Source of the DNA: a virus
Length of the DNA stretch: 64,000 nt
IMG/VR virus record: IMGVR_UViG_3300012953_006207
Span: 1-64,000 of that record
Reading direction: 5' to 3' (one strand)
Shown here: piece by piece, positions 41,171-55,380 of the stretch
Numbering within the stretch: position 1 is the stretch's first letter
Layout of the letters: each line of letters starts with the position of its first letter
Translations under genes and position numbers: made by a program
The notes under the pieces: generated by a model
What the model was told of the DNA's origin: nothing
Databases searched by the model: none
What the model saw: the letters and a program-made list of their open reading frames with translations, nothing else

Positions 41171-41204
41171 AAGTAGGGACCTTAATTGGTCCCTGCTTTC
41201 TTTT
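41171..41204 (+). terminator. Rho-independent terminator
   Basis: AAGTAGGGACC-TTAATT-GGTCCCTGCTT followed by a T-tract. Confidence 0.7.
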
Positions 41205-41355
41205 GTAGGTGTATATATACTCGATGGTAAGAGTACACTTTGACAGGTTATGTCTCGCTTAATTGCCAACCAACTAGACCATCAATAAGATCAAAATAAT
41301 CCATTTTTCCCAAATAAAGCAAATAAGGCAAATAAGTATTTTTTAGTGTTGACTT

Positions 41356-41425
41356 CCCCCCCCAGACCCCCGTGTCATCAGCCAAGGCTTGGCCAATGAC
41401 GTGGGGTCCCCAATTTTGCGTCAAG
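41356..41425 (+). repeat. GC-rich hairpin element copy 1 (arm A left, arm B right)
   Basis: C8-AGACCCCCG-TGTCAT-CAGCCAAGGCT-TGGCCAATGACG-TGGGGTCCCCAATTTTGCGTCAAG. Confidence 0.9.
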
Positions 41426-41561
41426 TATAAAAGCGGTATTTCATGCAGAAAAAAAAGTACTTATAACGCAAAAAAAACCTTGGCCTAAATCCAGAAATTG
41501 ATTAATCTAAGTACAGAGTTAAGAGACACAACAAAGAAACAAGAAAGCGAGAATACATATT

Positions 41562-42488
41562 ATGCCTATCCTAAAACAAACCACTTCCGACTTCGACTAC
41601 AACGTGGCTACCGTGCCGACTTACGTCAAAGACCCTCACACGGGCGAGTTCATTCGCACCGGAGTCCACGCCAACCAGCGACAAGATGACGGGCGCGTGG
41701 TCGGCCCTATCGTTTCGCATCGTTACGGGCTTGCCCAGAATAGCGATGTCATCAACATTGGCGAAGCTGCCATGCGTAACGCTGGCTTGCCGATGGATTC
41801 GGTGGAACGTAACGTGTCCGTGTACGGTGACGGCGAACGTATGCGCGTCACTTGGGATTTCCGCGACCAAACCAAGGCCGTGCGCGTTGAAGACCGCAAG
41901 GTCGGTGATGAGTTGGGCTTGCGCTTGTCACTGCAAAACTCCTTCAACCGCGAGACGAAGCTCTCGCTTAACCTTGGCTTGCTTCGCCTTGTTTGCTCCA
42001 ATGGCATGACAGCCTTGGACAACGAGTTCGGGCTTTCCCAGAAGCATAACTCCAAGTTGAACCTCGGCGCGATGTCCAGCGCATTGTCTCGCGCTTTGGA
42101 GTCGTTCAACTCCGGTGCTGCTACCGAGGTTTTCCACTTGCTCGCCTCCAAAGAGGTCGAACAGGAACAGGGACTCATTGCCCTGCAAAACATGGTCAAC
42201 GACAAGTTGTTCAGCGAACGCACTCGCAAGGGCATTGCCGAAATTTGGAATGCTCCAACCTTCGACGAAGACGGTGACCGCAACCTGTACAACCTGTACA
42301 ACGCGGGTACTCAGTACCTCACGCACTCCATCGCGGACAATCGCCGTGAACTTGCGGAGAAGACTTCGCGCCGACTGCTCACCACGCTGAACACGGCGGT
42401 GCGTTCCGAGGCAAACCTGACAACCCTCATCACTCCGCGCAAGACGCTGCAAGTGGTCGAGACTGTCGAGGACTCCCTCGCCATCTAA
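41562..42488 (+). CDS. DUF932 (DUF945)-family protein
   Basis: VS.RY...QN, L.NSFN, LGLLRLVCSNGM, KH, NLYNLYNA.T.Y.TH; GC-rich, C-ending codons. Confidence 0.85.
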   Translation: MPILKQTTSDFDYNVATVPTYVKDPHTGEFIRTGVHANQRQDDGRVVGPIVSHRYGLAQNSDVINIGEAAMRNAGLPMDSVERNVSVYGDGERMRVTWDFRDQTKAVRVEDRKVGDELGLRLSLQNSFNRETKLSLNLGLLRLVCSNGMTALDNEFGLSQKHNSKLNLGAMSSALSRALESFNSGAATEVFHLLASKEVEQEQGLIALQNMVNDKLFSERTRKGIAEIWNAPTFDEDGDRNLYNLYNAGTQYLTHSIADNRRELAEKTSRRLLTTLNTAVRSEANLTTLITPRKTLQVVETVEDSLAI

Positions 42489-42507
42489 GGGTAGGCTACC
42501 CAACCCA

Positions 42508-42557
42508 CAAATCCCTCGCCCTCTCCCCCATCCACGGGGGCGGGGGATTTTTTTTGT
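42508..42557 (+). terminator. Rho-independent terminator
   Basis: AAATCCCTCGCCCTC...GGGGGCGGGGGATTT followed by a T-tract. Confidence 0.75.
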
Positions 42558-42720
42558 ATTAATTAAATGCTTTTATTAGCGCGTCATTTCTGAGCGACAA
42601 ATCAATTTGCCAACCAAAAAACGCAGAAAGTGATCGGCAAGTTTTCGTGAAAAGGGGGGTTTTCTCGTGTGCGAAATTCGCCCGAAATACGAAATCTTCA
42701 CGGGCTGTTGACAAGAAAAG

Positions 42721-42789
42721 CTTGACGGCAAATTGGGGACCCCATGTCATTAGCCAAGATTTGGCCAATGACGCGGGGGTCTGGGGGGG
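42721..42789 (+). repeat. Hairpin element copy 2 (arm B left, arm A right)
   Basis: CTTGACGGCAAATTGGGGACCCCA-TGTCAT-TAGCCAAGATT-TGGCCAATGACG-CGGGGGTCTGGGGGGG. Confidence 0.9.
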
Positions 42790-42862
42790 CATGGAACTTG
42801 CTCATTAAAAAAAATGCTTTTCCTGTATTGACTTATTCCAAGAATTAAACGATATTTAGGTT

Positions 42863-43072
42863 ATGGACGCTTTCAGAATCGCATTGGACACCAAAAGAAG
42901 GCATGGGTACAACTATCAAAATGGACGGTGGATTCGTGGCTTTCAACACAACGGAACTGCGGATGATGAAATTCGTTGGATGAAATGGCAAAGACTAGAA
43001 AAAGCATTGCGAACGATAGATGAAAACACTTCTTACGAGGACATAATTAAAAAAGTGATGGGAGGCGAGTAA
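42863..43072 (+). CDS. Hypothetical early protein
   Basis: ATG 6 nt after the -10 of promoter 42828. Confidence 0.6.
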   Translation: MDAFRIALDTKRRHGYNYQNGRWIRGFQHNGTADDEIRWMKWQRLEKALRTIDENTSYEDIIKKVMGGE

Positions 43073-43623
43073 TGAGTTTTAATGATGATAAAAAAGAAAT
43101 TCAAGAACGAGTCATAGACTTAATTGATAAAACGAATGATAAGTTTGGCTTGGGCATGGCGTACCCGACTATCACCTACGACCTAAAAGGTACGGTGGCG
43201 GGTCAGGCATTCTATTATGAGAATAAGTTGAGACTTAATTCTATAGCACTTAAAAAGTACCGCGAACATTTTATTGAACAAACTGTTGGGCATGAAGTTG
43301 CTCACCTCACTGCGTTCAAACGACACGGCGGTGGGATTTCTCCTCATGGAACCGAATGGAAGAACTTCATGAGATTCTTCCGTCTCCCACCAGACCGTTG
43401 CCATACTTATGATTTGCCATCCGCTCGCGGTGGGGGCAGGAAGCGATACGTTTGCCAGAGTTGCCCCAAAGAGTTTAGCCTCAGCACAATCAAACACAAC
43501 AGGTGGCTGCGCGGTGAAAGCAAGCTCAGTTGCCAACGGTGTGGTGGTAAAGTTGTGTGGGAAAACACAGTGCCACAAAAGAAAAAGCCCTCGGAAGTAG
43601 GAATGGACTTGATTGAATTCTAG
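43072..43623 (+). CDS. SprT-like zinc metalloprotease
   Basis: G.VAGQA, HEVAH (HExxH), PHG.EWK..M, C-terminal CxxC..CxxC zinc ribbon. Confidence 0.9.
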   Translation: MSFNDDKKEIQERVIDLIDKTNDKFGLGMAYPTITYDLKGTVAGQAFYYENKLRLNSIALKKYREHFIEQTVGHEVAHLTAFKRHGGGISPHGTEWKNFMRFFRLPPDRCHTYDLPSARGGGRKRYVCQSCPKEFSLSTIKHNRWLRGESKLSCQRCGGKVVWENTVPQKKKPSEVGMDLIEF

Positions 43624-43643
43624 AAATGGAATAGTATAAGATT

Positions 43644-43895
43644 ATGAGAATGAAAGAAGCAATTAACGGCAGACTAGTTTACAACCAGAAGCGCAACCAA
43701 GTGGAACGGATTCGCTCTACCAACCTCAACGGCTCGAGTCTGATGGTGTCTCGGCACGGCGATGACTTGATGGCAGCTAAGCTCTCAGACCTTAGGTATG
43801 CCACTCAGAACGAGGTTGATGTTTATAAGGCTGAGACTGCCGTCAACCAATCGATGCAAAACGGAATTGTCACACGCAACGGAGTGACAGTCTAA
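43644..43895 (+). CDS. Hypothetical protein
   Basis: TTGATT-17-TAGTAT-6 nt-ATG. Confidence 0.6.
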   Translation: MRMKEAINGRLVYNQKRNQVERIRSTNLNGSSLMVSRHGDDLMAAKLSDLRYATQNEVDVYKAETAVNQSMQNGIVTRNGVTV

Positions 43896-43908
43896 CTTTA
43901 CTCGCTCG

Positions 43909-43953
43909 GCGGGTGGAGGGTTTTTCCGCTGGCCCTCCGCCCGCTTTCTTTTT
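43909..43953 (+). terminator. Rho-independent terminator
   Basis: GCGGGTGGAGGG...CCCTCCGCCCGC-TTTCTTTTT. Confidence 0.75.
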
Positions 43954-44120
43954 CTGGACTTATTCTAAGAATTAGTGTAGATTGGAGTATGAAGAATGAA
44001 ACTATCTCACCAACGCAACAAGTACGGCTTCACCTAGGCTGTATATTTATACAACTTAAAAACAATCGGATGTCTAAGATTTGGTGGCATCTGAAAGGAA
44101 TAGTTCGCTCTTTAATCTAA

Positions 44121-44576
44121 ATGAAAAAAAATGCTATTTATATCACTCTTTTGTTTCTTAGTTTTGCTCTCAATGCTGGGAAGAAGGACCTGACAGACCA
44201 ACAAGTTGTAGCTCTCACGATTCTCGGGGAGGCGCGTGGAGAAGGGGCGGGGGGTATGTATGGCGTCGCCTGTGTTATAGCCGAACGCTCTATCAACTGG
44301 AAAAGGAACGGGCGCAAACAAACTCCCCGACAGGTATGTTTAGTAGACAAACAATTCGAATGTTGGAACAACGGAAAGATACCCAGCGAAAGATTACTTG
44401 ATACCCCACAAGGAAAGTATGCTCTTTATTTGGCTATGAATATAAAAAGAGTAGACCGTAGCTATGTAAACTTTGCTGACCATTTTTGTCATATCAAAAA
44501 AAATCCATATTGGGCGAGTGGACGCAAGCCAGTAGCTATCATAAAAAAACATAAGTTCTTCAAACTCAGGGGTTGA
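44121..44576 (+). CDS. SleB/CwlJ-like cell-wall hydrolase (Hydrolase_2) with signal peptide
   Basis: Signal peptide; ALTILGEARGE...G..GVA.VI..R, QF.CWN, PYWA, I..H.FF. Confidence 0.85.
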   Translation: MKKNAIYITLLFLSFALNAGKKDLTDQQVVALTILGEARGEGAGGMYGVACVIAERSINWKRNGRKQTPRQVCLVDKQFECWNNGKIPSERLLDTPQGKYALYLAMNIKRVDRSYVNFADHFCHIKKNPYWASGRKPVAIIKKHKFFKLRG

Positions 44577-44607
44577 CTTATTCCAAGAATTAACCGATAC
44601 TGAATAC

Positions 44608-44898
44608 ATGGTAAGCGGATTGGTTAAACTACAGGCTAAAGAGGACGCACGTTCTTCCACCAAAAAAAGCATCGAAAAGCACGGGCCGTGGTTCGTGGTT
44701 GCTCGCGATTTCGTGCGAGACACAAAAGGACGCTTGGGGTATTACGTTTACCCCGCCAACGATGTAACGAATCTGCTCATGCAAAGCATGGCCGACAAAC
44801 GCGCAGGGTGTGAGTCTGCGTTGCCCCATCTATGGTCGGGCGTTCTGCGTCACGACGAGTGCGAACTCCTCAAGGGTTCAGCGAATATGTACCCTTAA
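44608..44898 (+). CDS. Hypothetical early protein (paralog of 51753)
   Basis: VK..A...A...TK.....HGP.F. Confidence 0.6.
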   Translation: MVSGLVKLQAKEDARSSTKKSIEKHGPWFVVARDFVRDTKGRLGYYVYPANDVTNLLMQSMADKRAGCESALPHLWSGVLRHDECELLKGSANMYP

Positions 44899-44942
44899 TT
44901 GCGTTGACTTATTCCAACAATTAACCCATAATTAGAAATCTT

Positions 44943-45296
44943 ATGAAAGCGGAACCATTAAAATCAAATCACTACAACCAAGCTCAAGAACTTGGTATAA
45001 CTAAAATCGTTCTCGAATGGTCGGGAGGAAGCGACGAGGGGCATCTCCATGTTTCTACTCAAGTAGCCGACAGGTTGGACGAAATCTCTGACGAGAAGCG
45101 TAAAACGATATATAGACTTGAAAGCGACATTGAGGAGTGGGGTTATGACGTTTACGAATATAGTGGCGCGGGTGACGGCAATCCCTACGGAGACACAATT
45201 AAGTACGACCTTGTAAAAGGTACAGTCTCAACTGTGGAATGGTATACCAAAGAAGTCTACGACGAACCAGAAACTTTCACCTTGTCCGTTGATTAG
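44943..45296 (+). CDS. DUF6878-like protein
   Basis: GIT.I..EWSGGSDEG...GAGDG..YG.TI..D. Confidence 0.6.
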   Translation: MKAEPLKSNHYNQAQELGITKIVLEWSGGSDEGHLHVSTQVADRLDEISDEKRKTIYRLESDIEEWGYDVYEYSGAGDGNPYGDTIKYDLVKGTVSTVEWYTKEVYDEPETFTLSVD

Positions 45297-45298
45297 AC

Positions 45299-45655
45299 AT
45301 GACGCCTTGGAAACACGCTGAATCCTCTGTTGCCCGATGGGGTGGAGAACCTACTGACTACGTTGCTCTGCATGATTGGTTTGATGAGACAAAGCAATTC
45401 ACTGGTGATTGGACTCATCGCGCATTGCGTCACCACTCTGCGGGTATTCAATGGGCCGTTGAAAGGTTTGGACACGCCATAAGAAACTCAAAGGGTAAAC
45501 TTATACCAACTAAAGCACTTGCGGAACAGCACGTTACAGAGGACTGCGGATTCATTCCGACACCACAAGATTGGCTCATGCAAGTTAAAGTGAATCCAGA
45601 CCCTTGGATGTTAAAAGTTAAAACTAAAAGCGTAACAAAATTGGAAGTAAAATGA
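45299..45655 (+). CDS. DUF6915-like His-rich protein
   Basis: P..HA.SS..RWGG...DY..LH.WFD.TK, HRALRHH..GI, AEQHV.ED.G.IP...DWL. Confidence 0.75.
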   Translation: MTPWKHAESSVARWGGEPTDYVALHDWFDETKQFTGDWTHRALRHHSAGIQWAVERFGHAIRNSKGKLIPTKALAEQHVTEDCGFIPTPQDWLMQVKVNPDPWMLKVKTKSVTKLEVK

Positions 45656-45825
45656 AAAGATACTCAGTAAAAATTAGAGAGGTACACGAACAGCAGATAT
45701 TTGTATCAGCTAAAGATGCAGATGACGCCAAAGAAAAAGCTGCCGAAGGAGTAGGGGATTTAGCTAATGGTACAGAGTTTTTGTATGCGCTGGATTCAGA
45801 CACTTGGGAAGTAGAGGAGGACTAA
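45652..45825 (+). CDS. 57-aa hypothetical protein (DpnD/PcfM-like pattern)
   Basis: MKRYSVKIREVHEQQIFVSAKDADDAKEKA...EED; hand-translated. Confidence 0.6.
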   Translation: MKRYSVKIREVHEQQIFVSAKDADDAKEKAAEGVGDLANGTEFLYALDSDTWEVEED

Positions 45826-45987
45826 ATGACCAAAGAAGAAGTCAGAGAACAAATCCAAGAGGACATAATTACCTATCTTGAAGGCTTGCCATCTGGGTGG
45901 CTGATGGGGTTTGAGAAAATGCCTCAAGAGGAAATTGATGCACTTTGCCAAATCGTAGTAGACAACTTTAAGAAATTGGAGGACTAA
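45826..45987 (+). CDS. 53-aa acidic hypothetical protein
   Basis: GGAGGACTAAATG junction; MTKEEVREQIQEDI...LED. Confidence 0.6.
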   Translation: MTKEEVREQIQEDIITYLEGLPSGWLMGFEKMPQEEIDALCQIVVDNFKKLED

Positions 45988-45990
45988 ATT

Positions 45991-46164
45991 ATGAAATACA
46001 AAGTACCAGTTAGTTGGCAGATGTACGGTCACGTTACCGTAGAAGCAGATACGCTTGAACACGCAGCAAAAATTGCTGAATCAGACATGGGTATTGGCTT
46101 GCCTGACAATGGTGAGTATGTAGAATCATCATGGGAAGTGGATTGGGCGGTATTGGAGGACTAA
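45991..46164 (+). CDS. 57-aa hypothetical protein (DpnD/PcfM-like pattern)
   Basis: MKYKVPVSWQMYGHVTVEADTLEHA...LED. Confidence 0.6.
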   Translation: MKYKVPVSWQMYGHVTVEADTLEHAAKIAESDMGIGLPDNGEYVESSWEVDWAVLED

Positions 46165-46332
46165 ATGAAAACATCAGAAAGAACAGAACAACTTGCCCGT
46201 GACATGGTTGATTCATGGGATGACAAAGACTTGTATAGTTTTGCGGTAGACATGGTAACAGAGAACCTTGAGAAGTGCGACGAGGAAGAATTTAAGTCTG
46301 AATGGAATAACTATTACGGAGAGGATGCATAA
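46165..46332 (+). CDS. 55-aa acidic protein (paralog of 31587)
   Basis: GGAGGACTAAATG junction; LARDMVDSW...EEFKSEWNNY. Confidence 0.6.
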   Translation: MKTSERTEQLARDMVDSWDDKDLYSFAVDMVTENLEKCDEEEFKSEWNNYYGEDA

Positions 46333-46532
46333 TGGAACATAATCACAAACAAGACCAACACGATAGAATAATGATTAACCGAATCAAGGACGACCTTGAG
46401 GATTGGTTGACTACTCATGGAGAAATCACAATGGGCAGCGAGATGGTTAAAGATGTTCACCGACTCATTGACGAATCGGTGCATCGCACCAAACTCATGC
46501 GAAAGGATTGGATGAAGCCAGACAGAAGTTAA
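46332..46532 (+). CDS. Hypothetical early protein
   Basis: TAATG coupling. Confidence 0.55.
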   Translation: MEHNHKQDQHDRIMINRIKDDLEDWLTTHGEITMGSEMVKDVHRLIDESVHRTKLMRKDWMKPDRS

Positions 46533-46592
46533 AGTCATAGCCAAATAAATTTGCCCATTTAAATAAATATAAATAAATAATAATCCCCTTCA

Positions 46593-46658
46593 CCCCCCCA
46601 GACCCCCGTGTCATCATCCAGATGGCCAATGACGTGGGGTCCCCATTTTTGAGTCAAG
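46593..46658 (+). repeat. Hairpin element copy 3 (A left, B right)
   Basis: C7-AGACCCCCG-TGTCAT-CATCCAGA-TGGCCAATGACG-TGGGGTCCCCATTTTTGAGTCAAG. Confidence 0.9.
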
Positions 46659-46852
46659 CCTAAAGTGAGGAATTTTTTTAGAAAAAGTGCCTCTGAGGCA
46701 TTGACTTTTTCTAGTAATTGAATTAGATTGGTTGAAGATGAACGACGCGGAAAGAGTAGCACAGGACAAACGGATTTTAGAATGGTGGAGGCTCACAAAG
46801 AATTTATCAAGTAGGACAGCGGATGTCCCACCTCCCGTGGTAGGGTATGCAT

Positions 46853-46987
46853 ATGAAAAAAAACAAGAAACAACCGAAGGCGCGAGTGAATCCCGAAGGC
46901 TACATGGGCAGCGCATCGCGTGAGCATAAAGTGAAGAAGGGCAAAGGCTCTTACAAGCGGAACAAAAAAATTAACCCAGAGGACTAA
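46853..46987 (+). CDS. ArfA-like 44-aa ribosome-rescue peptide
   Basis: MKKNKKQPKARVNPEGYMGSASREHKVKKGKGSYKRNKKINPED contains the ArfA KKGKGSYxR motif; has its own promoter. Confidence 0.6.
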   Translation: MKKNKKQPKARVNPEGYMGSASREHKVKKGKGSYKRNKKINPED

Positions 46988-46994
46988 AAAGATT

Positions 46995-47411
46995 ATGAGT
47001 AAAACAAGTGTTCAAAAATGCGGAACCAACTGGCGCGTGATTCTCACAGGAGACGCCCAAGCAATCGAAACCAAACATTGGTCAATGTTCAATCATGGCG
47101 CGACAAGCTCCGACCTCGAATGGGAAACGGCAAATTGCGCGTGGTTCTGGTCTACTCCTGAAAAGATTTTGAAAGCGTTTACCAACGCGCATCTTTTCTC
47201 ATACTTGAATCAATTTGATTTGATAGGAGACGAACCAGAAGTGGCAGGGCATGAAGCAAAAGCTCACAATGACGCAAAGCAGGAATTTTTTGCGATGGGG
47301 AATATGCCTAGCTTCAAGCCGTTTCGCTCTGTTTCAATCCTGAATTTGGATTGCTTCGCGATGGGTACGGGTTCGGCTCGTGCTGAAAAAATGGCAGTAG
47401 AAACCAAGTAA
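46995..47411 (+). CDS. Hypothetical early protein
   Basis: GAGG SD; protein-like ORF. Confidence 0.6.
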   Translation: MSKTSVQKCGTNWRVILTGDAQAIETKHWSMFNHGATSSDLEWETANCAWFWSTPEKILKAFTNAHLFSYLNQFDLIGDEPEVAGHEAKAHNDAKQEFFAMGNMPSFKPFRSVSILNLDCFAMGTGSARAEKMAVETK

Positions 47412-47430
47412 AGAAAAAGGTTTATTTGAT

Positions 47431-48183
47431 ATGAAAATTCTCTCTATCGATGCAGACGCAAAAACCGTTAAAGGTCTCAAGAAAGGCTATCGCACTGCGA
47501 TTAGCTACCTTGCGCCCAGTAACGCCAGCGGTGTAATGAATACTTGCCCAAGTGCAAGCAAAGGGTGTCGGGCTGCTTGTCTTTACGGGGCAGGTCGTGC
47601 CAAGTTCACGCCATCAATTCCAAAGGCGCGAATCAACAAAACAAAGTTTTTTCATTCCGACCCTGTAGGCTACGGCCAGCAGCTTTACAAGGAATTAAAA
47701 GCTCACCAGAAAAGCTCTGCGCGTAAAGGCTTAACACCTACCGTGCGCCTCAACGGAACAAGCGATATTGCTTGGGAGGATTTCATTCTAGAGGAAACGG
47801 GGAAAAACGTTTTTGAATCTTTCCCCGATTTACAATTTTATGACTATACCAAGCGGACAAACCGCGTTGCGGATTATGCAGACGGCAAGCTTCCGAAAAA
47901 TTACCACCTCACGTTTTCAAAGAGTGAAAACACCAGCGACGAACAAGTTGCAAAGATTCTGGGTTGGGGTGTCAACGTTGCGGTAGTCTACGCAAACGAA
48001 TTGCCCGAAGCTGACTTTGACGGTTGGCAGGTTATCAATGGCGACGAAAACGATTTACGCTTCCTCGACCCCATCGGCGTTGTTGTTGGTCTAAAGTATA
48101 AAAAGACTTCAGCAACTGAGGAGGACAAAAACGGATTTGTTCGCGAGTTGAAATTTGCAAACGCAGTTCTTGAGACTGCATAA
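47431..48183 (+). CDS. GP88-like phage protein
   Basis: CP.AS.GC.AACL...GR, VRLNGTSDI, QFYDYTK, NYHLTFS, GD..DLRFLDP..VVVGLK.K. Confidence 0.8.
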   Translation: MKILSIDADAKTVKGLKKGYRTAISYLAPSNASGVMNTCPSASKGCRAACLYGAGRAKFTPSIPKARINKTKFFHSDPVGYGQQLYKELKAHQKSSARKGLTPTVRLNGTSDIAWEDFILEETGKNVFESFPDLQFYDYTKRTNRVADYADGKLPKNYHLTFSKSENTSDEQVAKILGWGVNVAVVYANELPEADFDGWQVINGDENDLRFLDPIGVVVGLKYKKTSATEEDKNGFVRELKFANAVLETA

Positions 48184-48290
48184 CAAAAAACCGAAAGGAA
48201 AAAAAATGCTATGGATAACGTTATCTATCATATCAGCCGTAGTACTTTGTAAATTGGTATCAAAATAAAAAAATAAAATAATAGCTCCCC

Positions 48291-48364
48291 CTTGACAGGG
48301 GGGGCAAATTGGGGACCCCATGTCATTAGCCGAACACGGCCAATGACGCGGGGGTGTGGGGGGG
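48291..48364 (+). repeat. Hairpin element copy 4 (B left, A right)
   Basis: CTTGAC...AAATTGGGGACCCCA-TGTCAT-TAGCCGAACA-CGGCCAATGACG-CGGGGGTGTGGGGGGG. Confidence 0.9.
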
Positions 48365-48455
48365 TACAGAACTTGCTTCGGAACCATTTAAAAAAAAGAA
48401 AAAAAATGACCGTTAGGGGGTTGACTTATTCCAAGAAAGAGAGTAGATTAAGAGA

Positions 48456-48845
48456 GTGGACAGGGGTAAGACCCAGTACGAGCCCAAGGGCAGGATTACA
48501 AAATCTAGGCAGACAGTATGCGACGAGGGCAAGAAGCTGTAAGACCCTCGGCCTGAAACTGCCGTTTAAATTTCTCGCAACAACGCGAGGAAGCATAGGT
48601 GAAGAACATTAAACGTCCGTGAGAGGCAACGGCCTATGCAACAATTTACTGGGAGGCAGAATACAGTCTAGGCAAGCCTAACGTAGCGAACGGGGTACGC
48701 GCCCTGTTAGGGACGAGGAAGCACCAGTAGACGTTTTCGCAATAACGCGGGAATGAAACTAACTAGAAAGGTAACATAGTGCAGGAGGTTGGCCAGAGAA
48801 GGCGGTTACCGCTGGGCCGTAAAGCACTTGAAAAATGCCTCTTAA
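48456..48845 (+). ncRNA. Candidate large structured ncRNA (~390 nt), family unknown
   Basis: Starts right after the TTGACT-17-TAGATT promoter; no credible ORF; many nested stems (see findings). Confidence 0.65.
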
Positions 48846-48855
48846 TTTTTGATAA

Positions 48856-49062
48856 ATGAAAAACTACAAAACATACCAAGCCCGTAACGCTGTCAAAGCA
48901 GCGCAAGTCACCAACCACATCAAATCCCGCAAGGCTCAAGGCGTTGAACACAACGAAGCTAAAGCTGAAGCGTATTATATATATAATATAAAACAGGGTA
49001 AGAAAATTATTCTAAACACCCTAAACTACGCAACGCCTACCAAATCTCTGGTATGTAAATAA
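48856..49062 (+). CDS. Basic hypothetical protein
   Basis: ORF directly downstream of the ncRNA candidate. Confidence 0.5.
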   Translation: MKNYKTYQARNAVKAAQVTNHIKSRKAQGVEHNEAKAEAYYIYNIKQGKKIILNTLNYATPTKSLVCK

Positions 49063-49089
49063 ATAATAAAAATAACAAGTCTGGGTTCA

Positions 49090-49150
49090 CCCCCAGACCC
49101 CCGTGTCATTGTCCTTGGCCCATGACGTGGGGTCCCCAAAAACGGTCAAG
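49090..49150 (+). repeat. Hairpin element copy 5 (A left, B right)
   Basis: CCCCCAGACCCCCG-TGTCAT-TGTCCT-TGGCCCATGACG-TGGGGTCCCCAAAAACGGTCAAG. Confidence 0.9.
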
Positions 49151-49218
49151 CTTTATTTTTTTTATTTATTTAAATGGTGGGACAGCCAATGTCCTACCCC
49201 CCATGGTAATCTATACGC

Positions 49219-49425
49219 ATGAAGTTTGAGACAGGAACACAAGTACAGCACCGCGACAACCCCATGTGGAAGGCCGTTGTGGTGCGCGACCTCAACCCCC
49301 GCAAGCCAGTGAATAGCTGTGTGATGGTGAATCACAACGGGCGGGAAGTGCCAATGGGCAAGAGTCTTTTGCGGGTATCCTTCCACGCAGACGCCAAAAA
49401 AGAATTTGGCGAAGTTGTAAGCTAG
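49219..49425 (+). CDS. Small SH3/KOW-like protein (paralog of 54002)
   Basis: V.H.......VV.DLNP..PV...V.V. Confidence 0.55.
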   Translation: MKFETGTQVQHRDNPMWKAVVVRDLNPRKPVNSCVMVNHNGREVPMGKSLLRVSFHADAKKEFGEVVS

Positions 49426-49462
49426 GACAGCGGATGTCCTACCTCCTATGCTAGATTTAGAT

Positions 49463-49663
49463 ATGAATATGAAGCAAGTAAAGATAGTGATAAACGAAAA
49501 TGATACACTTTGCCGTATCAGCATCAACGGATTCGCAAGCGAACACAAATGCGAGGTGCATGAGTCCGACCACGAAGGTAAAGACGCCACCACAATCAAC
49601 ATCGACGGCGTGGGAGATTTTATTTCTTACAACGATTGCAAAAGCTGGGAAGTGATGGACTAA
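49463..49663 (+). CDS. Hypothetical early protein
   Basis: ATG after palindrome-type promoter 49422. Confidence 0.55.
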   Translation: MNMKQVKIVINENDTLCRISINGFASEHKCEVHESDHEGKDATTINIDGVGDFISYNDCKSWEVMD

Positions 49664-49667
49664 AATT

Positions 49668-49859
49668 ATGAGTATGAGTAACAACAAAAAGACGGAGCTA
49701 GAAGCTCGAAAAGTATACGCACACGGCGTGAACAAAGACACACACTTCAACACCCCACAAGGGCCGAAGCCATATCCAAAAGTCAATTACGACAAGATGT
49801 GGAACGTTGAAGGTTATTATAGCGACGATAACGGAAACGACATCAGAGACAGAGACTAG
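49668..49859 (+). CDS. Hypothetical early protein
   Basis: Operon-packed ORF. Confidence 0.5.
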   Translation: MSMSNNKKTELEARKVYAHGVNKDTHFNTPQGPKPYPKVNYDKMWNVEGYYSDDNGNDIRDRD

Positions 49860-49868
49860 GAAACGATT

Positions 49869-50171
49869 ATGGAAAAAAAGAATTACATTATCAATCTACA
49901 CGCAGTAGGTGAGAAGAAGATTACCAGCGGTTACGCTGGCCCCCGTGAAGTATGCGGTCACTTTAGCACACCCGCAAAGGTTGGCACTATCGCCTTTGAA
50001 GAGGCTAAGATGAATGCAGTAGACTACTACTGGAATCAAAACAAGCGTTACTGGCACGGCTACCGCATTGGCAAGTTAGAAGTAGAAGTTGGGCGCGAGT
50101 CTGTCAGCGTAATGACTCCCGCTTGGGACTATCACAAGGGACGCACGTTCCCCGTATGGGAGGAGGTATAG
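49869..50171 (+). CDS. Hypothetical early protein
   Basis: Operon-packed ORF. Confidence 0.55.
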   Translation: MEKKNYIINLHAVGEKKITSGYAGPREVCGHFSTPAKVGTIAFEEAKMNAVDYYWNQNKRYWHGYRIGKLEVEVGRESVSVMTPAWDYHKGRTFPVWEEV

Positions 50172-50344
50172 AATCAAAAGCAGAAGATACAACGCAGACA
50201 AAGAAACGAGTAAACAGTTTTACGCTAGAAGAAAAAAGGAGATGGAAGATTATTTTAATCACCCTTATTATAAAACTTACTCTGAAAAAATTTGGGCCGA
50301 ATATAAAAAAGCTAACAAATAGTATTGTCTTTGTCGAAAAAGTT

Positions 50345-50410
50345 AAAATTGGGGACCCCATGTCATCGTCCATTGTGGCCAATGACACGGGGACCCCATT
50401 TTGCGTCAAG
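50345..50410 (+). repeat. Hairpin element copy 6 (B-type arms on both sides)
   Basis: AAAATTGGGGACCCCA-TGTCAT-CGTCCATTG-TGGCCAATGACA-CGGGGACCCCATTTTGCGTCAAG. Confidence 0.9.
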
Positions 50411-50479
50411 GAAAAAGTTTATTGATAATTCTTTTAGGTAGGACGGCGGATGTCCTACCCCCTATGGTAGATTAGACAC

Positions 50480-50647
50480 ATGATGATGAACGACAACAAC
50501 AAGATGAACAAAGAACAATTCAAAAACGAAGTGCTGGCCCTAGTGTCAGAGGATGCGTTGCCAATGGTGGACGCACTAACTGACCAAGGATTTGCCGAAG
50601 GCTGGACACCAGCCGAAGTAGCTGGACAATGCGAAGCTGATGCATAA
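50480..50647 (+). CDS. 55-aa hypothetical protein (MMMNDNNK...)
   Basis: ATG 6 nt after -10; hand-translated. Confidence 0.55.
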   Translation: MMMNDNNKMNKEQFKNEVLALVSEDALPMVDALTDQGFAEGWTPAEVAGQCEADA

Positions 50648-50702
50648 AAGAAATTAAAGGGTAGGACGGCGGATGTCCGACCCCCTGTGTTATATTTACT
50701 AC

Positions 50703-50846
50703 ATGATTATGAGCATATACGAAGTTCAAACCCACGACGGAGACGCTACCCTTGGATGGATACAAGGACATGATGACGACCACGCCCAGCGCGTAGCCGA
50801 GAGGCTTTACTGCAAAGGCGTACTGGTTGTTCTTTGCGATGACTAA
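50703..50846 (+). CDS. 47-aa hypothetical protein
   Basis: ATG 6 nt after the -10 TATATT; hand-translated. Confidence 0.55.
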   Translation: MIMSIYEVQTHDGDATLGWIQGHDDDHAQRVAERLYCKGVLVVLCDD

Positions 50847-50899
50847 AAAACTATGGGCCAGCGTGATGGCCTTGGAGATCACGCCCTTATTAAATCATT

Positions 50900-51097
50900 A
50901 TGATTGAACTCGGAATGCAAGTGGAGGATATGCGCGGTTACCTTGGTGTGGTCGCTGCCTCCCCACGCGGTGGCAAGTGGTTCATCCTCAAAAAGGATGG
51001 ACGCATGGTTCGCCGTGCTGACCATGAGATTCGTGAATACGACGAGTCTTATTGCCCAGCCTTCGAAAAGTGGCTGGAGAAGCGTTCGCTTCGTTAG
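50900..51097 (+). CDS. Small SH3-like hypothetical protein
   Basis: IELGMQV....G.LGVV pattern; followed by terminator. Confidence 0.5.
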   Translation: MIELGMQVEDMRGYLGVVAASPRGGKWFILKKDGRMVRRADHEIREYDESYCPAFEKWLEKRSLR

Positions 51098-51103
51098 TAT
51101 CAA

Positions 51104-51130
51104 CCCCCCCTAGTGGGGGGCTTTAATTTA
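51104..51130 (+). terminator. Probable terminator hairpin
   Basis: CCCCCCC-TAGT-GGGGGG followed by a T-rich tract. Confidence 0.55.
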
Positions 51131-51155
51131 TTTTTATTTATATATTTATATCGTT

Positions 51156-51548
51156 ATGGAAAAAGTACAAGTTTATCGCAACCTGCATCGGACAGAAGAA
51201 GACGGAACGCACGTTTATAGCGTTCGCAATGACAAGGGCATTGTCGTAGACCACGTTGCAGAAATTACATTGAGTCGTCCTATCTTGAGAGTCGGCCCCA
51301 AAGGTAATCAGCGAGTGCGTGATGAGAAACGTAAAAACGTTCATGCTTATATCCAAGGCATGAAGATGAAAGAGTCAGTGATTGATGACCCCCGCTCAGG
51401 CGAAAAAAAGTGCGAGTGGCAAAAGATTACTTATAACCCTTATAAACATAAGAGTTTTGTTTTAGTAAAGGACGAGTCCGTTGCAGTGCGTGAAGCGTGG
51501 TTTGTTGAGATTCGTCGAGATGGTGTTTGGGCGTGGCTCCCGGAGTAA
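51156..51548 (+). CDS. Conserved phage hypothetical protein
   Basis: KV.VYRNLH...YSVR...G..RVR.EKRKNVHA...ITYNPYK...FV. Confidence 0.7.
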   Translation: MEKVQVYRNLHRTEEDGTHVYSVRNDKGIVVDHVAEITLSRPILRVGPKGNQRVRDEKRKNVHAYIQGMKMKESVIDDPRSGEKKCEWQKITYNPYKHKSFVLVKDESVAVREAWFVEIRRDGVWAWLPE

Positions 51549-51601
51549 GAACCCCAGTTCCCTGAACGCTAATAAATACCAAACAATTAATATCAATATT
51601 G

Positions 51602-51657
51602 AAAATTGGGGACCCCATGTCATTAGCCTTGGCCAATGACGCGGGGGTCTGGGGGGG
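51602..51657 (+). repeat. Hairpin element copy 7 (B left, A right)
   Basis: AAAATTGGGGACCCCA-TGTCAT-TAGCCT-TGGCCAATGACG-CGGGGGTCTGGGGGGG. Confidence 0.9.
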
Positions 51658-51752
51658 TACGATTCTTGCTAAGTCCATGCCCAGTAAAGTTGTGAATAAC
51701 TTTCGAGGAACTCCCCTTGACTTATTCCAGTAATTAAGGTAGGTTTATCTCG

Positions 51753-52004
51753 ATGATTAAAACGACTACAGTCAAAGTAACCGCCAGACCCAACGCCAAG
51801 GCCCGCACCAAAAACCGCCTTCGGGATCATGGTCCCATGTTCAAGGACGTGACCGAATTAAACACTGGCCACAGTGTGCGCCACGATGAAAAACTTGGCG
51901 ACTGTGTGCTGCTGCGTTCTTTGAAGAAGCCACAGCTAGGCTGGGCGCAGCCTTGGAATGGCTGGTTGTCTCTTGATGAAATTGTTGTGAATAAGTTTGA
52001 GTAG
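51753..52004 (+). CDS. Hypothetical early protein (paralog of 44608)
   Basis: Promoter 51717; HGPMF motif. Confidence 0.6.
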   Translation: MIKTTTVKVTARPNAKARTKNRLRDHGPMFKDVTELNTGHSVRHDEKLGDCVLLRSLKKPQLGWAQPWNGWLSLDEIVVNKFE

Positions 52005-52047
52005 AAACCCCCTTGACTTATTCCAGTAAATCCCTTATTGTATTCCC

Positions 52048-52362
52048 ATGATGAACGACGACCTACGAGACCTAATGCCCACCAGTGAAGAGTTCTACGC
52101 CAGCATGGCCCCCGCGCCAGTTGACGAGAACGGAATGACGCCTGACGAGCGTGACGAGTACGAGTCCGAGTATAATGCTTATCTCGATTCCATTGGCACT
52201 TCCTTTGCCGAAGTGCAGGAGAAATCCCGTCAGTTCGCTGACGACCTTGAGAACGCTTACAAGTGCGACGACGACGAAGACGACCATGACAGCATGAATG
52301 ACGGCCACGGAACGCTGGCGGATGATGCATGGCACGATGCCAACGAATACCCTGAGTGGTAG
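52048..52362 (+). CDS. Highly acidic 104-aa protein (possible DNA mimic)
   Basis: Hand count 32 D/E versus 5 K/R; own leaderless-type promoter. Confidence 0.65.
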   Translation: MMNDDLRDLMPTSEEFYASMAPAPVDENGMTPDERDEYESEYNAYLDSIGTSFAEVQEKSRQFADDLENAYKCDDDEDDHDSMNDGHGTLADDAWHDANEYPEW

Positions 52363-52368
52363 GGCCAG

Positions 52369-52447
52369 AGCAACGCCCGTGCCAACATGGGCCATTGTGA
52401 ATAACTTGGCCAATGACGCGGGGGTCTGGGGGGGCATGATTCCTGCT
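52369..52447 (+). repeat. Hairpin half-element copy 8 with sigma54-like sites and DnaA-box-like 9-mer
   Basis: AGCAACGCCCGTGCCA...TGTGAATAAC-TTGGCCAATGACGCGGGGGTCTGGGGGGG-CATGATTCCTGCT. Confidence 0.85.
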
Positions 52448-52559
52448 GTGGTTCCTGAGAATTTTTTTTAGAAAAAGTGCCTTTGGGGGGTTGACTTTTT
52501 CCAACAATTGAACGATATTTAAGAAGTCAGCAGGACAACAAACAGAAAGAGAAAACAAG

Positions 52560-52679
52560 ATGAGCATACAGAGAGAAGACATCGAATGGGATTCAGCGCA
52601 AGCCGAATCAGAGTACGACATCAGCGAAGAGAAAATGGCCAAGTTGGAAAACATGGCGTGGGACAACGACAACGACTAG
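52560..52679 (+). CDS. 39-aa acidic peptide
   Basis: MSIQREDIEWDSAQAESEYDISEEKMAKLENMAWDNDND; promoter 52491 with A-rich leader. Confidence 0.55.
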   Translation: MSIQREDIEWDSAQAESEYDISEEKMAKLENMAWDNDND

Positions 52680-52693
52680 ACGAAAGGAATCAG

Positions 52694-53059
52694 ATGAACG
52701 ATAACAAGTTGTATAACAAGCGGGCCTTCGGACTTCCGAAGATGGAACTCCCCAACGGAACTATGAGCCTGACCTACTCCGGTCACGCTCGGACTGCTGC
52801 TGCACGTCCCGAACGTTTCGGGTACGCCGAGAACATCGACCTGCCTCGCGCAATCAACCTGAACGATTGCGAAGTGGTCGAAGCTGAAATGGCAAAGGGT
52901 AACCCTGTACCGGAAAAGATTGTTGTGCGTTACCCGTACAGCGACAACATGGACTTGGTTATGCCTATGTATATGGACGGATTCGTTAAGACCGTATGGC
53001 TTAATGACCGTTACGACCAGCACCGCACCCTCGACAAGCGTCGCTATGCACGGCCTTAA
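52694..53059 (+). CDS. Conserved phage hypothetical protein
   Basis: AAGGA SD; L.YS.HA...K.VVR...VKTVWLN...D.H.TLD...Y. Confidence 0.65.
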   Translation: MNDNKLYNKRAFGLPKMELPNGTMSLTYSGHARTAAARPERFGYAENIDLPRAINLNDCEVVEAEMAKGNPVPEKIVVRYPYSDNMDLVMPMYMDGFVKTVWLNDRYDQHRTLDKRRYARP

Positions 53060-53222
53060 CGACAAGCAACAGTTCGGAGAATGGCTCGACAAGTTTGACG
53101 GGCCTCTCCGTTCTCTTTATGAAGACTATAAAGAAAAGAACTATAAACCGTTGTCATACTTTGCGTGGTGCTTGGGCGTGTACCAAGAAACCAAGTATGC
53201 CGACACGTTGAGGAATAATTGA
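53046..53222 (+). CDS. Hypothetical protein
   Basis: Overlaps upstream stop. Confidence 0.45.
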   Translation: MHGLNDKQQFGEWLDKFDGPLRSLYEDYKEKNYKPLSYFAWCLGVYQETKYADTLRNN

Positions 53223-53292
53223 TATGGAATTGATTGTATTTATTACAAGCTCAAGCATAGTCGCCTTCTGGTACGCCGAGGCGTTCCACTAA

Positions 53293-53367
53293 AGCAAGGC
53301 CCGTGCCAGCACAGGCCATTGTGAATAACTTGGCCAATGACGCGGGGGTCCCCCAATTTGCGTCAAG
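53293..53367 (+). repeat. Hairpin half-element copy 9 (chimeric A/B arm) with sigma54-like site and DnaA-box-like 9-mer
   Basis: AGCAAGGCCCGTGCCA...TGTGAATAAC-TTGGCCAATGACGCGGGGGTC-CCCCAATTTGCGTCAAG. Confidence 0.85.
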
Positions 53368-53457
53368 GTTATTTTCAAGAAAGTTATCCACGGTTTGCGA
53401 ATAACTTTTTCCAGAAAGTCCCTTGACTTTTTCCAGCAATGTGTTATCTTATTACAG

Positions 53458-53694
53458 ATGAACGACAACGGAACATTCATAGGGCTAGTCAAGGCTGGCA
53501 AAGCTCAAAACGTAGTACCCACTTCCCGCAAGATGAACATGGCAGCAGCATTGGCGGGGGCGGTCAGCTTACGCGACGCAGAACAGTACTTCCGTAGGCT
53601 ACAACACGCAAACAACATGGGAACCACTGAGGCGGACTATGCAGAACTAGAACGCAAGTTTTATGCGGAACACGGCTACCCTCATGGGTATTAA
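53458..53694 (+). CDS. Hypothetical early protein (MND start)
   Basis: ATG after promoter 53423. Confidence 0.6.
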   Translation: MNDNGTFIGLVKAGKAQNVVPTSRKMNMAAALAGAVSLRDAEQYFRRLQHANNMGTTEADYAELERKFYAEHGYPHGY

Positions 53695-53760
53695 AAAAAA
53701 TCAAAAAAAATTAGAAAAACCCCTTGACTTTTTCCAGCAATTAGACTATATTTAAACAAG

Positions 53761-53955
53761 ATGAACGACATAAAAAAGACCAAAACCACTAACTGGACAA
53801 GCTACAAACGCGAACGTTTCAACAAGGCGGAATTCAACGCTGAAATGGCTCGCATTGAAAAGCAGACTTTTGTACTGCAACACATTACATCTTTCTGCAT
53901 CGGGGCAAGCATTGCGCTCGGATTCGTATTGATTCACATGATTGTAACTGGATAA
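53761..53955 (+). CDS. Small membrane protein (MND start)
   Basis: C-terminal hydrophobic helix; promoter 53724. Confidence 0.6.
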   Translation: MNDIKKTKTTNWTSYKRERFNKAEFNAEMARIEKQTFVLQHITSFCIGASIALGFVLIHMIVTG

Positions 53956-54001
53956 AAAAACCGCTTGACTTTTTCCAGAATATCCCTTACATTATAAACA
54001 G

Positions 54002-54199
54002 ATGAACGACATAACAGTAACAGCACGAGTCAAGCACCACCGCAACCACGCCAAGACTGGCACGGTGGTCGCAGACCTTAACCCCAAGGCTCCGGTGTAC
54101 GGAGTCGTAAGAGTAAAGTGGGACGATAACGAACACGAAAGCCGTCACCACAAGTTCACCCTTCGGCGTTTGCAGTACGCATGGCCGACCAACAACTAA
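54002..54199 (+). CDS. Small SH3/KOW-like protein (MND start; paralog of 49219)
   Basis: RVKH......GTVV.DLNP..PV...VRVKWD. Confidence 0.6.
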   Translation: MNDITVTARVKHHRNHAKTGTVVADLNPKAPVYGVVRVKWDDNEHESRHHKFTLRRLQYAWPTNN

Positions 54200-54214
54200 A
54201 AAATTTAAAGAGAC

Positions 54215-54415
54215 ATGGATAAAGAATTAAAACAGTTCACTATCACAATGGAAAGCGGTACGCGCTTCGGAGGCAAGTATCGTGACGAGGCTCACGTCCG
54301 CGATGCTAACAAATGGTTTAGCGGTAAAATTGTTAAGATTGAACAACGCCCACTCTGGACACCTGAAGAGGAGGCAGAGATGGACGCAGACAAGGCATGG
54401 CATCGCGCCTACTAA
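54215..54415 (+). CDS. Hypothetical early protein
   Basis: ORF before the final terminator. Confidence 0.55.
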   Translation: MDKELKQFTITMESGTRFGGKYRDEAHVRDANKWFSGKIVKIEQRPLWTPEEEAEMDADKAWHRAY

Positions 54416-54489
54416 AATCGGAGGTTATAGTCATGTTGTGTTTAGCAATCATCACCTTACTAGTCATCGTTTACTAGTCGTTCGTCATC

Positions 54490-54522
54490 ACCCGCCCCCT
54501 TCTTCGGAGGGGGGTGGTTTTT
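54490..54522 (+). terminator. Terminator closing the early region
   Basis: CCGCCCCCTTC-TTCG-GAGGGGGGTGG-TTTTT (UUCG tetraloop). Confidence 0.8.
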
Positions 54523-54672
54523 GAAAAATTTTTTGTCGCAATAACTACGAAAGGGCGTGAGGGGGTTGTTTTACAACTTTACAAGAAAAGAAGTCCTACT
54601 CTTTTACGACCTCGAAAAAATCCCCGGAGGGGATTGCTTTTCAGAGTCCTTTTGATATACTGGCGTTGCCTT

Positions 54673-55380
54673 ATGAAGACTTTACTATTCTGCACATCAC
54701 ATTTCAAAGAAAGAGAAGAATATTTAAAAAGATATGAAAAATGGGCGGGATACTACCTTGATTTAGATTGGGAGGACAAAACCCTCTTTATGATCGACGA
54801 CTGTTCCGACGCTTCGCTCGTAAACACAAACTTATTTAACATAATTAAAAGCAGTGAGTTGCCAGAAGAATCGGCGTTATCCACAAACAAAGTCAATTTC
54901 GTACATTTTGAAGAAAAAGCTCCATGTCACAAAGACGGACAGGCAGCAAATTCAGCAGGATGGTGGAGAGGTTACTTGTCTATAGTCGATATAGCTAAAA
55001 AGTACGACTTCGAGAGAATCATACATGTAGAATCAGATTTATATCTAATCTCAAAAAATATAAGAGATTTTATTGAAGGTAGAATGACTGACGGGTGGCA
55101 TTCCTTTTTGTGCAGAAAGTACAACTGGCCAGAATCATCTTTGCAGGTAATTAACAAAGATAAGTATGAAGCATTCGAAGAATTGCGGTCAGACCTAGAA
55201 GAGCTTGGTTTAGAGAATATTGATGCAAGCCGTGGACCCGCAGAGCTTTTGCTTCCATTCACAAGAATAACAAAGGGCTTTAATGGAAGTAGGTACGGAG
55301 AGGATTCCCCAAGTCAAACTGCTGGAATGGACTACTTTGCCCAGTGCAGAGACAACACTTTAATTATAGCAGAAAAATAG
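54673..55380 (+). CDS. Glycosyltransferase-like protein
   Basis: MIDD.S, GWWR, IIHVESD; start re-placed after TTGCTT..TATACT. Confidence 0.55.
   Translation: MKTLLFCTSHFKEREEYLKRYEKWAGYYLDLDWEDKTLFMIDDCSDASLVNTNLFNIIKSSELPEESALSTNKVNFVHFEEKAPCHKDGQAANSAGWWRGYLSIVDIAKKYDFERIIHVESDLYLISKNIRDFIEGRMTDGWHSFLCRKYNWPESSLQVINKDKYEAFEELRSDLEELGLENIDASRGPAELLLPFTRITKGFNGSRYGEDSPSQTAGMDYFAQCRDNTLIIAEK

Follow-up and report, generated by a model that had tools for sequence, protein, structure and literature searches.

Sigma-54-like sites attached to hairpin elements of an uncultured phage as putative remnants of an exchangeable promoter class

The DNA analysed here (hereafter, the window) is a stretch of 64,000 nucleotides (nt) corresponding to the first 64 kb of the virus record IMGVR_UViG_3300012953_006207 of IMG/VR, a linear sequence of 80,696 bp with 39.8% GC and a CheckV completeness of 51%. 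Between its small genes, nine palindromic elements (E1 to E9, all inside 41357-53375) are found, some of which are joined to strings resembling the promoters recognized by sigma-54. The comparison of these strings with those of related contigs suggests that they might belong, in a partly decayed form, to a -24/-12 hairpin-promoter cassette shared by the whole lineage, mostly left over beside ordinary promoters, a reading to which we assign about an even chance. The likeness to sigma-54 promoters is more than a coincidence at the level of the lineage, and we infer from the sequences that the lineage motif is read by sigma-54 rather than by some other factor with the same geometry.

Sites of the window and their counterparts in related phages

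In bacteria, RpoN (sigma-54) promoters such as those known as glnAp2, nifH, and pspA share the -24/-12 consensus TGGCACG-N4-TTGCW, and the sigma-54 holoenzyme forms stable closed complexes without an activator. The original prediction had described GG-N10-GC sites of this type welded to the hairpin elements on both strands, and all the strings it quoted are present at the positions it gave (Table 1). Indeed, the right-hand (plus-oriented) A arms lead into a GG-N10-GC tail in all four cases (E2, E4, E7, and E8), the two minus-strand sites at 52384-52369 and 53308-53293 are exact TGGCACG-N4-TTGCT matches, and the head-to-head arrangement GG-N10-GC-N10-CC occurs at 51656-51681. The GG and GC dinucleotides are exactly 10 nt apart at all six sites; with respect to the extended consensus TGGCACG-N4-TTGCW, two of the six are exact, two carry two mismatches, and two carry three. 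The four plus tails share the form GG(Y)A(Y)(R)-N4-(Y)TGCT. None of the three left-hand A arms (E1, E3, and E5, at 41357, 46592, and 49088) has any GC dinucleotide in the equivalent 20-nt flank.

These six sites are not independent, since they represent two paralogous families. The four plus sites belong to one 43-nt repeat family (D4, 84-93% identity), in which the similarity between copies stops exactly at TGCT, and the two perfect minus sites sit in one 79-nt duplicate (D10, 82% identity), with the sole difference between their 16-mers located in the N4 spacer. The minus site of E8 overlaps a small plus-strand stem, GCCCGUG-CCAA-CAUGGGC.

The degenerate pattern was scanned in 24 sources; the contigs related to the window come from marine metagenomes. 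In L107, a 12.4-kb piece of the contig G001 whose 130-aa protein is 82% identical to that of the window, 13 matches were found versus 0.13 expected. The two sister contigs G001 and G004 each harbor 12 same-strand copies of TTGGCAC(G)GAACCTGCT(GTGTATAGG), always on the gene strand; all the plus-strand copies (12/12 in each contig) conform to GG-N10-GC, but they had been selected by pattern. In the first 5 kb of G004, TGGCAYN7GC is found 12 times in the forward and never in the reverse orientation, and the reversed control pattern gives no match. In G001, scanned over the whole contig, the plus-strand motif reads TTGGCAC(R)CA(W)C(Y)TGCTGTGTA(W)AGG, and its 12 copies fall within 7 kb. Moreover, within the small-gene blocks, a GC at N7 follows 12 of the 16 plus-strand TGGCAY hexamers of G001 and 12 of the 14 of G004, versus 4 of 59 elsewhere in G001. 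The original prediction had hinged on the N10 spacing being shared by homologous elements; these counts show that the spacing is kept in the relatives, so that the objection of a non-conserved spacing falls away.

In G004, the distance from the C of the GC to the first ATG is 11 nt at five sites, 12 nt at two, 13 nt at one, 17 nt at two, and 19 nt at one, plus one site at 1 nt, where the ATG overlaps the motif; thus, the ATG lies at 11-13 nt in 8/12 cases, and the open reading frames (ORFs) following the motif encode 24-93 aa. In G001, eleven copies have an ATG 11-19 nt after the GC (11-13 nt in 5/11), with ORFs of 38-77 aa, and the twelfth is located 19 nt before a tRNA-Arg gene (8393-8469). 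When the two contigs are combined, an ATG is present no more than 19 nt downstream in 23 of the 24 copies, with a mode of 11-13 nt (13/24), and the remaining copy is the one preceding the tRNA. Most of the G004 copies directly follow a GC-rich hairpin, and many copies overall do so either directly or after a short T-run. By its place in these sequences, the motif of the sister contigs looks like the promoter position of a cassette, which would give leaderless or near-leaderless mRNAs. In this region of L107 (8359-8469), the tRNA is a tRNA-Arg(TCT), and a second copy of the motif is found 19 nt after it.

Several of the motif-headed genes of the sister contigs are orthologous to genes of the window, namely those starting at 46847, 49219, 50706, and 51753; as an example, the ORFs MKARVN...REHKVKKGKG, MKIKVDDKVKHRDNP, and M..ATTRTKNRIR of G001/G004 match the window genes 46847, 49219, and 51753. 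In the window, the orthologs are headed instead by promoters of a class made of a palindrome plus TGGTAGATT or by TTGACT promoters (TTGACT-N17-TATATT). The same orthologous genes thus lie under different promoter classes, suggesting that the promoter class has been exchanged. The E2 string GGGCATGGAACTTGCT and the G004 string TGGCATGGAACCTGCT are identical at 14 of 16 positions and both adjoin a hairpin, a likeness that favours common descent of the two sequences, although with moderate strength only, given that seven fixed positions were common to the criteria by which both strings had been picked.

In other relatives, two convergent copies of the motif form intergenic palindromes, seven in G002 and four in G003 (the "provirus" label of the latter is based on sugar and nucleotide metabolism genes at uniform GC, without host flanks). 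These palindromes keep the outer TGGCAY and the central GC-N-GC, whereas within their 7-nt spacers only 0-3 of the 7 positions can pair in G002 and 3-5 in G003, a pattern of conservation that appears to suit sequence recognition better than a continuous hairpin. In L100 (6165) and L101 (6148), the stop codon of the orthologous 104-aa gene is immediately followed by a palindrome of convergent TTGGCAY-N7-GC halves, of which the window keeps only the right-hand one at the 3' end of this gene. On this comparison, the perfect minus sites of the window are best read as one surviving arm of a putative ancestral double-site palindrome.

A different arrangement is present in L106, where two TGGCACGG(A/T)AC(C/T)TGCT sites lie on the minus strand (6100-6300 and 8330-8520), each followed by about 70 nt without an ATG. 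These stretches end in a GGGGGGGGACCCCCC hairpin and a TAGTACGTGTACGTACTA palindrome, and the hairpin core of L106, GGGGACCCC, is the same core that is used in the elements of the window. The L106 sites may mark small RNAs.

As for the closest relatives, L087 (95.8% nucleotide identity) has E2 and E4 sites identical to those of the window, and L004 (95-99% identity) has identical E7 to E9 sites; both are too close for their unchanged sites to be informative on conservation. In L088, whose DUF932 protein is 82% identical, E1 is kept and the ortholog of E2 is a symmetric B/B element with the flank ...GTCAAGTAAAACTTACT / AACTTACT / ...GTCAAGTAAAACTTACTCATTT..., from which both the GG and the GC are gone. 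Beyond the lost site, L088 retains the following 45 nt as well as the TTGACT promoter and the gene.

Chance expectation and competing explanations

Taken alone, GG-N10-GC is uninformative, being trivially frequent. With the strict consensus TGGCACGNNNNTTGC and up to two mismatches, 15 sites were found in comparison with 9.1 ± 3.1 expected, and 5 of 100 shuffles reach this number; these matches include no more than two of the four plus sites, and, therefore, the plus sites are individually at chance level. When no more than one mismatch was allowed, four sites were found versus 0.61 expected (1 of 100 shuffles reaches four), and an exact match is expected about 0.01-0.02 times per genome, as estimated from base composition. 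The pattern GGYAYRNNNNYTGCW, written after the sites had been seen, occurs seven times versus 0.65 expected, a number that none of 100 shuffles reaches, and six of the seven occurrences touch the elements. The two exact sites are unexpected, and the four plus sites, individually unremarkable, count as one event. As for the claim of sigma-54-type sites itself, the -24/-12 resemblance and the lineage-wide spacing stand, and the original interpretation is supported in part.

According to the reading that we prefer, a lineage of uncultured marine phages would attach a -24/-12-type motif to intergenic hairpin modules, and the promoter class would be swapped within a system of terminator/hairpin-plus-promoter cassettes. 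Two kinds of remnant would be left in the window, namely (a) four rightward copies forming the 3' tail of the long A arm, with TGG changed to GGG, and (b) two perfect leftward copies, each representing one arm of an ancestral double-site palindrome. Being contained in the repeat unit, the old sites would have persisted with it; binding of the host sigma-54 holoenzyme, if the host has one, may still occur at them, but the expression of the cassettes would not require them.

The window sites are read as retained parts of a repeat unit that would once have borne, and in the sister phages would still bear, the promoter of the cassette, in view of observations that include the lack of genes headed by the plus sites, the TTGACT boxes following them, and the absence of sigma-54 domains from the contigs. 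Regarding the first, ORFs starting within 30 nt of the four rightward sites have at most 18 codons: the ATG located 12 nt after the E2 site opens an ORF of 5 codons, an ORF of 18 codons follows the E7 site, none follows that of E8, and the region after the E4 site is without a credible ORF. Regarding the second, a TTGACT box is found 27-48 nt after each plus site. The existence of sigma-70 promoters downstream of these sites had been part of the original prediction, and the promoter scan recovered three of the four (42828, 48421, and 52491); the fourth TTGACT (51718, after the E7 site) has a weaker -10 box and was not picked up. Regarding the third, the domain search revealed no Sigma54_DBD on four related phage contigs (G000-G003) and no Sigma54_activat on seven, the contigs being 14-83% complete and an activator of the host being possible. 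The neighbouring AAA+ protein (39781-40761), considered as a divergent sigma-54 activator, was rejected as such because it is RuvB-like, over its full length (E 1e-13); its translation contains no GAFTGA.

Some points weigh against this reading. The sites are invariant in L087 and L004; GG, A, TGC, and T are retained in all the plus copies, whose variation is confined to positions tolerated by the consensus. This conservation is as compatible with ongoing selection as with recent copying. The tails are all oriented like the genes, which would not be required of a pure relic. Taken singly, the plus sites match the strict consensus no better than expected by chance. In G001 and G004, the conserved block exceeds what a sigma-54 promoter needs, since the downstream TGTGTAWAGG is also kept. 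Neither rpoN nor Sigma54_activat is found on the related contigs, at the completeness given above, and the dependence on sigma-54 is putative. Lastly, with a motif matrix derived from the sites of the relatives, only the E8 minus site (15.5) scores above the mean best of shuffled sequence (12.8, highest 16.6), and the plus sites of the window are not separable from shuffled sequence. This matrix was built from pattern-selected sites, and for this reason GGG is heavily penalised in it; its failure is treated as a limit of a matrix of this kind.

The first alternative is that the window sites are functional binding sites of the sigma-54 holoenzyme in this phage, where the rightward ones would provide each sigma-70-type promoter with a tandem second promoter gated by an activator, and the leftward ones would either hold closed complexes acting as insulators or roadblocks at the borders of the cassettes or give rise to antisense RNA. 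The motif is apparently a working promoter class in the sister phages, and the two exact consensus matches, each expected about 0.01-0.02 times per genome, agree with this possibility; furthermore, the single difference between the perfect 16-mers falls in the free spacer, yet three of the next eight nt differ. The co-orientation of the four tails with the genes (4/4) and their variation at Y/R-tolerant positions only can be read in the same way. Nevertheless, L088 has lost the E2 site and kept the cassette, the ORFs at a leaderless distance do not exceed 18 codons (5 after E2, 18 after E7), none of the three left-hand A arms carries a site, and Sigma54_activat is absent, the AAA+ protein at 39781-40761 being RuvB-like. 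On balance, functional sites in the window seem unlikely to us. We are similarly doubtful of the wider scenario in which the lineage runs its small-gene cassettes from hairpin-attached host sigma-54-type promoters at a leaderless distance and swaps them for sigma-70-type and activator-type promoters at orthologous genes, with the window sites still docking the holoenzyme in closed complexes at cassette borders, the rightward ones as activator-gated back-up promoters and the leftward ones as insulators or antisense starts. The original prediction had also proposed decoys, roadblocks, or docking sites for RNA polymerase; nothing shows such a function, and the idea is not needed either. In the relatives, the motif occupies the place expected of a productive promoter, with an ATG 11-19 nt further on, and in L088 the E2 site has been lost while the promoter and the gene were kept.

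A second alternative, which we consider less probable than the first, is that the lineage motif is read by a factor other than sigma-54 that mimics the -24/-12 layout, the window copies being its sites or their remnants. This factor might be a transcription factor encoded by the phage, a protein that binds RNA polymerase, or a phage polymerase of an unrecognised kind, and the phage does encode its own RpoD-like sigma factor (12872-13798). The conservation between G001 and G004 extends over about 26 nt, with TGTGTAWAGG after the GC included, which is more than sigma-54 needs; upstream activator sites would fall inside the preceding ORFs, because the gap between stop codon and motif can be as short as 3-4 nt; and the palindromic double sites look like those of a dimeric protein. 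On the other hand, the sigma-54 consensus is matched at 10 of 11 specified positions with exact spacing, and the 13 nt separating TGGCAC from the TATAGG-like part are too few for a -35/-10 pair of the sigma-70 family. Spacing was also the reason for rejecting the motif as such a pair, as an extended -10, and as a MotA-box promoter. The T7-type RNA polymerase domain PF00940 is absent from four contigs (one of them 83% complete), although the control genomes gave none either.

An accidental resemblance, in which a repeat flank and a G-run happen to satisfy the trivially frequent GG-N10-GC (a run of seven G gives six registers), would agree with the chance-level count at up to two mismatches and with the mere two independent families among the six sites, but is very improbable given the two exact matches at 11 positions and the recurrence of the 16-mer, which in two other contigs precedes ATGs as a strand-specific motif of 12 copies and in three further contigs is found in the arms of palindromes.

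Comparison with known systems

The likeness to the bacterial sigma-54 promoters consists of the GG and GC placed exactly 10 nt apart, with two exact consensus matches in the window, and of the consensus of the sister phages located 11-13 nt before the ATG in 13/24 cases, which is the distance at which sigma-54 transcripts start. The differences are that the phage contigs are without rpoN or an enhancer-binding protein and show no evident upstream activator sites, that the relatives keep an extra conserved block downstream, and that the plus copies of the window have GGG for TGG and head no gene, the whole comparison being made at the sequence level.

Accounts of phage transcription programmes usually invoke sigma-70 promoters, phage sigma factors, or phage polymerases, and a full-text search, limited to the literature text open to it, found no description of sigma-54-type promoter classes in phage genomes. 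If sigma-54 does read the motif, part of the programme of these phages would be coupled to leaderless mRNAs and to a host factor that depends on enhancers, and the related phages would show a promoter class exchanged like a module at the same genes, with the window representing a snapshot in which old sites persist beside new promoters. If the sites are only leftovers, they would mark the border of the repeat unit and supply natural down-variants of the motif.

A second known system is represented by the promoter-early stem-loops (PeSLs) of T4-type phages, which are described as composite stem-loop/early-promoter modules placed between small variable genes and mediating cassette exchange (PMC4122927, PMC2839356). 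Like the PeSLs, the short hairpin-plus-promoter modules of the window are repeated between small variable genes, and the relatives differ by whole-cassette swaps or insertions/deletions at the modules (the L004 allele and the metagenome joints reported below, the latter being possible assembly artefacts). As for the differences, the hairpin families vary between the relatives of the window, several hairpins of the window are without a U-tract on the gene strand, and the lineage has three exchangeable promoter classes, one of them of the -24/-12 type, whereas the PeSL promoters are sigma-70 early promoters. Moreover, the terminase of the window is no more than 27% identical to that of any cultured phage, and the T4 hallmark genes were not searched for.

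Hairpin elements, promoters, and other features of the region

The coordinates of the sites, the elements, and the promoters that follow the plus sites are reported in Table 1.

Table 1. Sigma-54-like sites, palindromic elements, and sigma-70-type promoters mapped in the window.
Feature	Position	Strand	Remarks
E2 site GGCATGGAACTTGCT	42788..42802	+	tail of the E2 A arm
E4 site GGTACAGAACTTGCT	48363..48377	+	tail of the E4 A arm
E7 site GGTACGATTCTTGCT	51656..51670	+	tail of the E7 A arm
Convergent partner GGCATGGACTTAGCA	51667..51681	-	central GC in common with the E7 plus site; one mismatch to GGYAYRNNNNYTGCW; E7 only
E8 plus site GGCATGATTCCTGCT	52433..52447	+	tail of the E8 A arm
Perfect site TGGCACGGGCGTTGCT	52369..52384	-	no mismatches; left edge of E8, directly after the stop of the 104-aa gene
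Perfect site TGGCACGGGCCTTGCT	53293..53308	-	no mismatches; left edge of E9; paralog of the E8 minus site
E1	41357..41425	.	A' arm left, B arm right; no sigma-54-like tail
E2	42720..42790	.	B' arm left, long A arm right
E3	46592..46660	.	A' arm left, B arm right; no tail
E4	48300..48365	.	B' arm left, long A arm right
E5	49088..49150	.	A' arm left, B arm right; no tail
E6	50345..50410	.	symmetric B'/B
E7	51602..51660	.	B' arm left, long A arm right
E8	52385..52434	.	left part with GTGAATAAC; long A arm right
E9	53309..53375	.	left part with GTGAATAAC; B arm right
Promoter TTGACT-N17-GATATT	42828..42856	+	sigma-70-type; 27 nt downstream of the E2 string; heads the gene starting at 42863
Promoter TTGACT-N17-TAGATT	48421..48449	+	sigma-70-type; downstream of the E4 string
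Promoter TTGACT-N17-GATATT	52491..52519	+	sigma-70-type; downstream of the E8 string

The elements are built from two kinds of arm, A (ATGACGCGGGGGTCTGGGGGGG) and B (ATGACGTGGGGTCCCCAATTTTGCGTCAA), and together with at least seven TTGACT promoters they are contained in 12 kb of small ORFs. E1 and E2 form an inverted pair around the DUF932 gene, with 69-nt arms that are 87% complementary and 1295 nt apart. The computed fold of E2 has an energy of -34.9 kcal/mol (z -2.9), the z-scores of E2, E3, and E6 range from -2.5 to -2.9, and the sigma-54-like tails fall outside the main hairpin. On the plus strand, a T-run is present only after type-B arms (E1, E3, and E6), a G-run ends E2, E4, E7, and E8, and E5 and E9 are without a clear T-run; the terminator scan picked up only the tip of E3.

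A 17-mer scan for the hairpin arm retrieved one true relative (L004) and five chance matches, and the exact hairpin half-site is absent from all 44 GP88-linked loci. In the more distant relatives L008, L009, and L052, the modules between genes are analogous to those of the window, and the sequences of their hairpins are quite different.

The inverted pairs of elements bracket gene cassettes with the A arms outermost (41357-42789, 46592-48365, and 49085-51660); besides E1 and E2, E5 and E7 have 55-nt arms that are 84% complementary, and E3 and E4 form a similar pair. This layout resembles that of cassettes flanked by inverted repeats. In L004 (12510-12260), a strongly diverged allele of the small gene 51753-52004 is located between two conserved hairpin/promoter modules, which represents a cassette swap. 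In addition, the contigs obtained from four metagenome runs are interrupted at the hairpin elements (window 41300-53500), and several cassette-sized joints recur in two runs (50834 to 52264, 44882 to 46155, and 52283 to 52364); these recurrent joints may be natural insertion/deletion variants or assembly crossings at the repeats.

A further motif, (T)GTGAATAAC(TT), is present at 51689-51701, 51985-51997, 52395-52407, 53319-53331, and 53395-53407, i.e., about 20 nt upstream of TTGAC -35 boxes and also inside E8 and E9. It is common to L009, L052, L100, L101, and L110 in spite of their differing hairpins, occurring as an inverted pair in L052, and is probably the operator of a conserved regulator.

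The second promoter class of the window consists of the palindrome TAGGACnnCGGATGTCCTA followed by the extended -10-like TGGTAGATT, with the ATG 6-7 nt further on. It is found at 46810-46862, 49176-49228, 49421-49473, 50437-50489, and 50660-50712 and is conserved in L008, L052, L101, and L110.

Concerning the phage as a whole, the window and the rest of the record encode a large terminase, tail fibres, the RpoD-like sigma factor, and many sugar-modification genes. The sigma factor (308 aa) has RpoD as its best NCBIfam match, well under the curated cut-off. A megablast search against cultured phages returned no close DNA relative of the window. The relatives of the terminase, the sigma factor, the GP88-like protein, the portal-sized ORF, the helicase, and the DegT aminotransferase are distant or taxonomically scattered (those of the aminotransferase are spread over many phyla), and no host was assigned on their basis.

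No Rfam match was obtained across 40000-56000. Within this region, the stretch of about 390 nt following the 48421 TTGACT promoter (48456-48845) contains no credible ORF and, at E<=0.1, belongs to no Rfam family. Long parts of it are conserved in L108 (6430-6720) and partly in L109 (6430-6560), e.g., ...GGCAAGCCTAACGTAGCGAAC.GGGTACGCG..., and the stretch is a candidate structured RNA.

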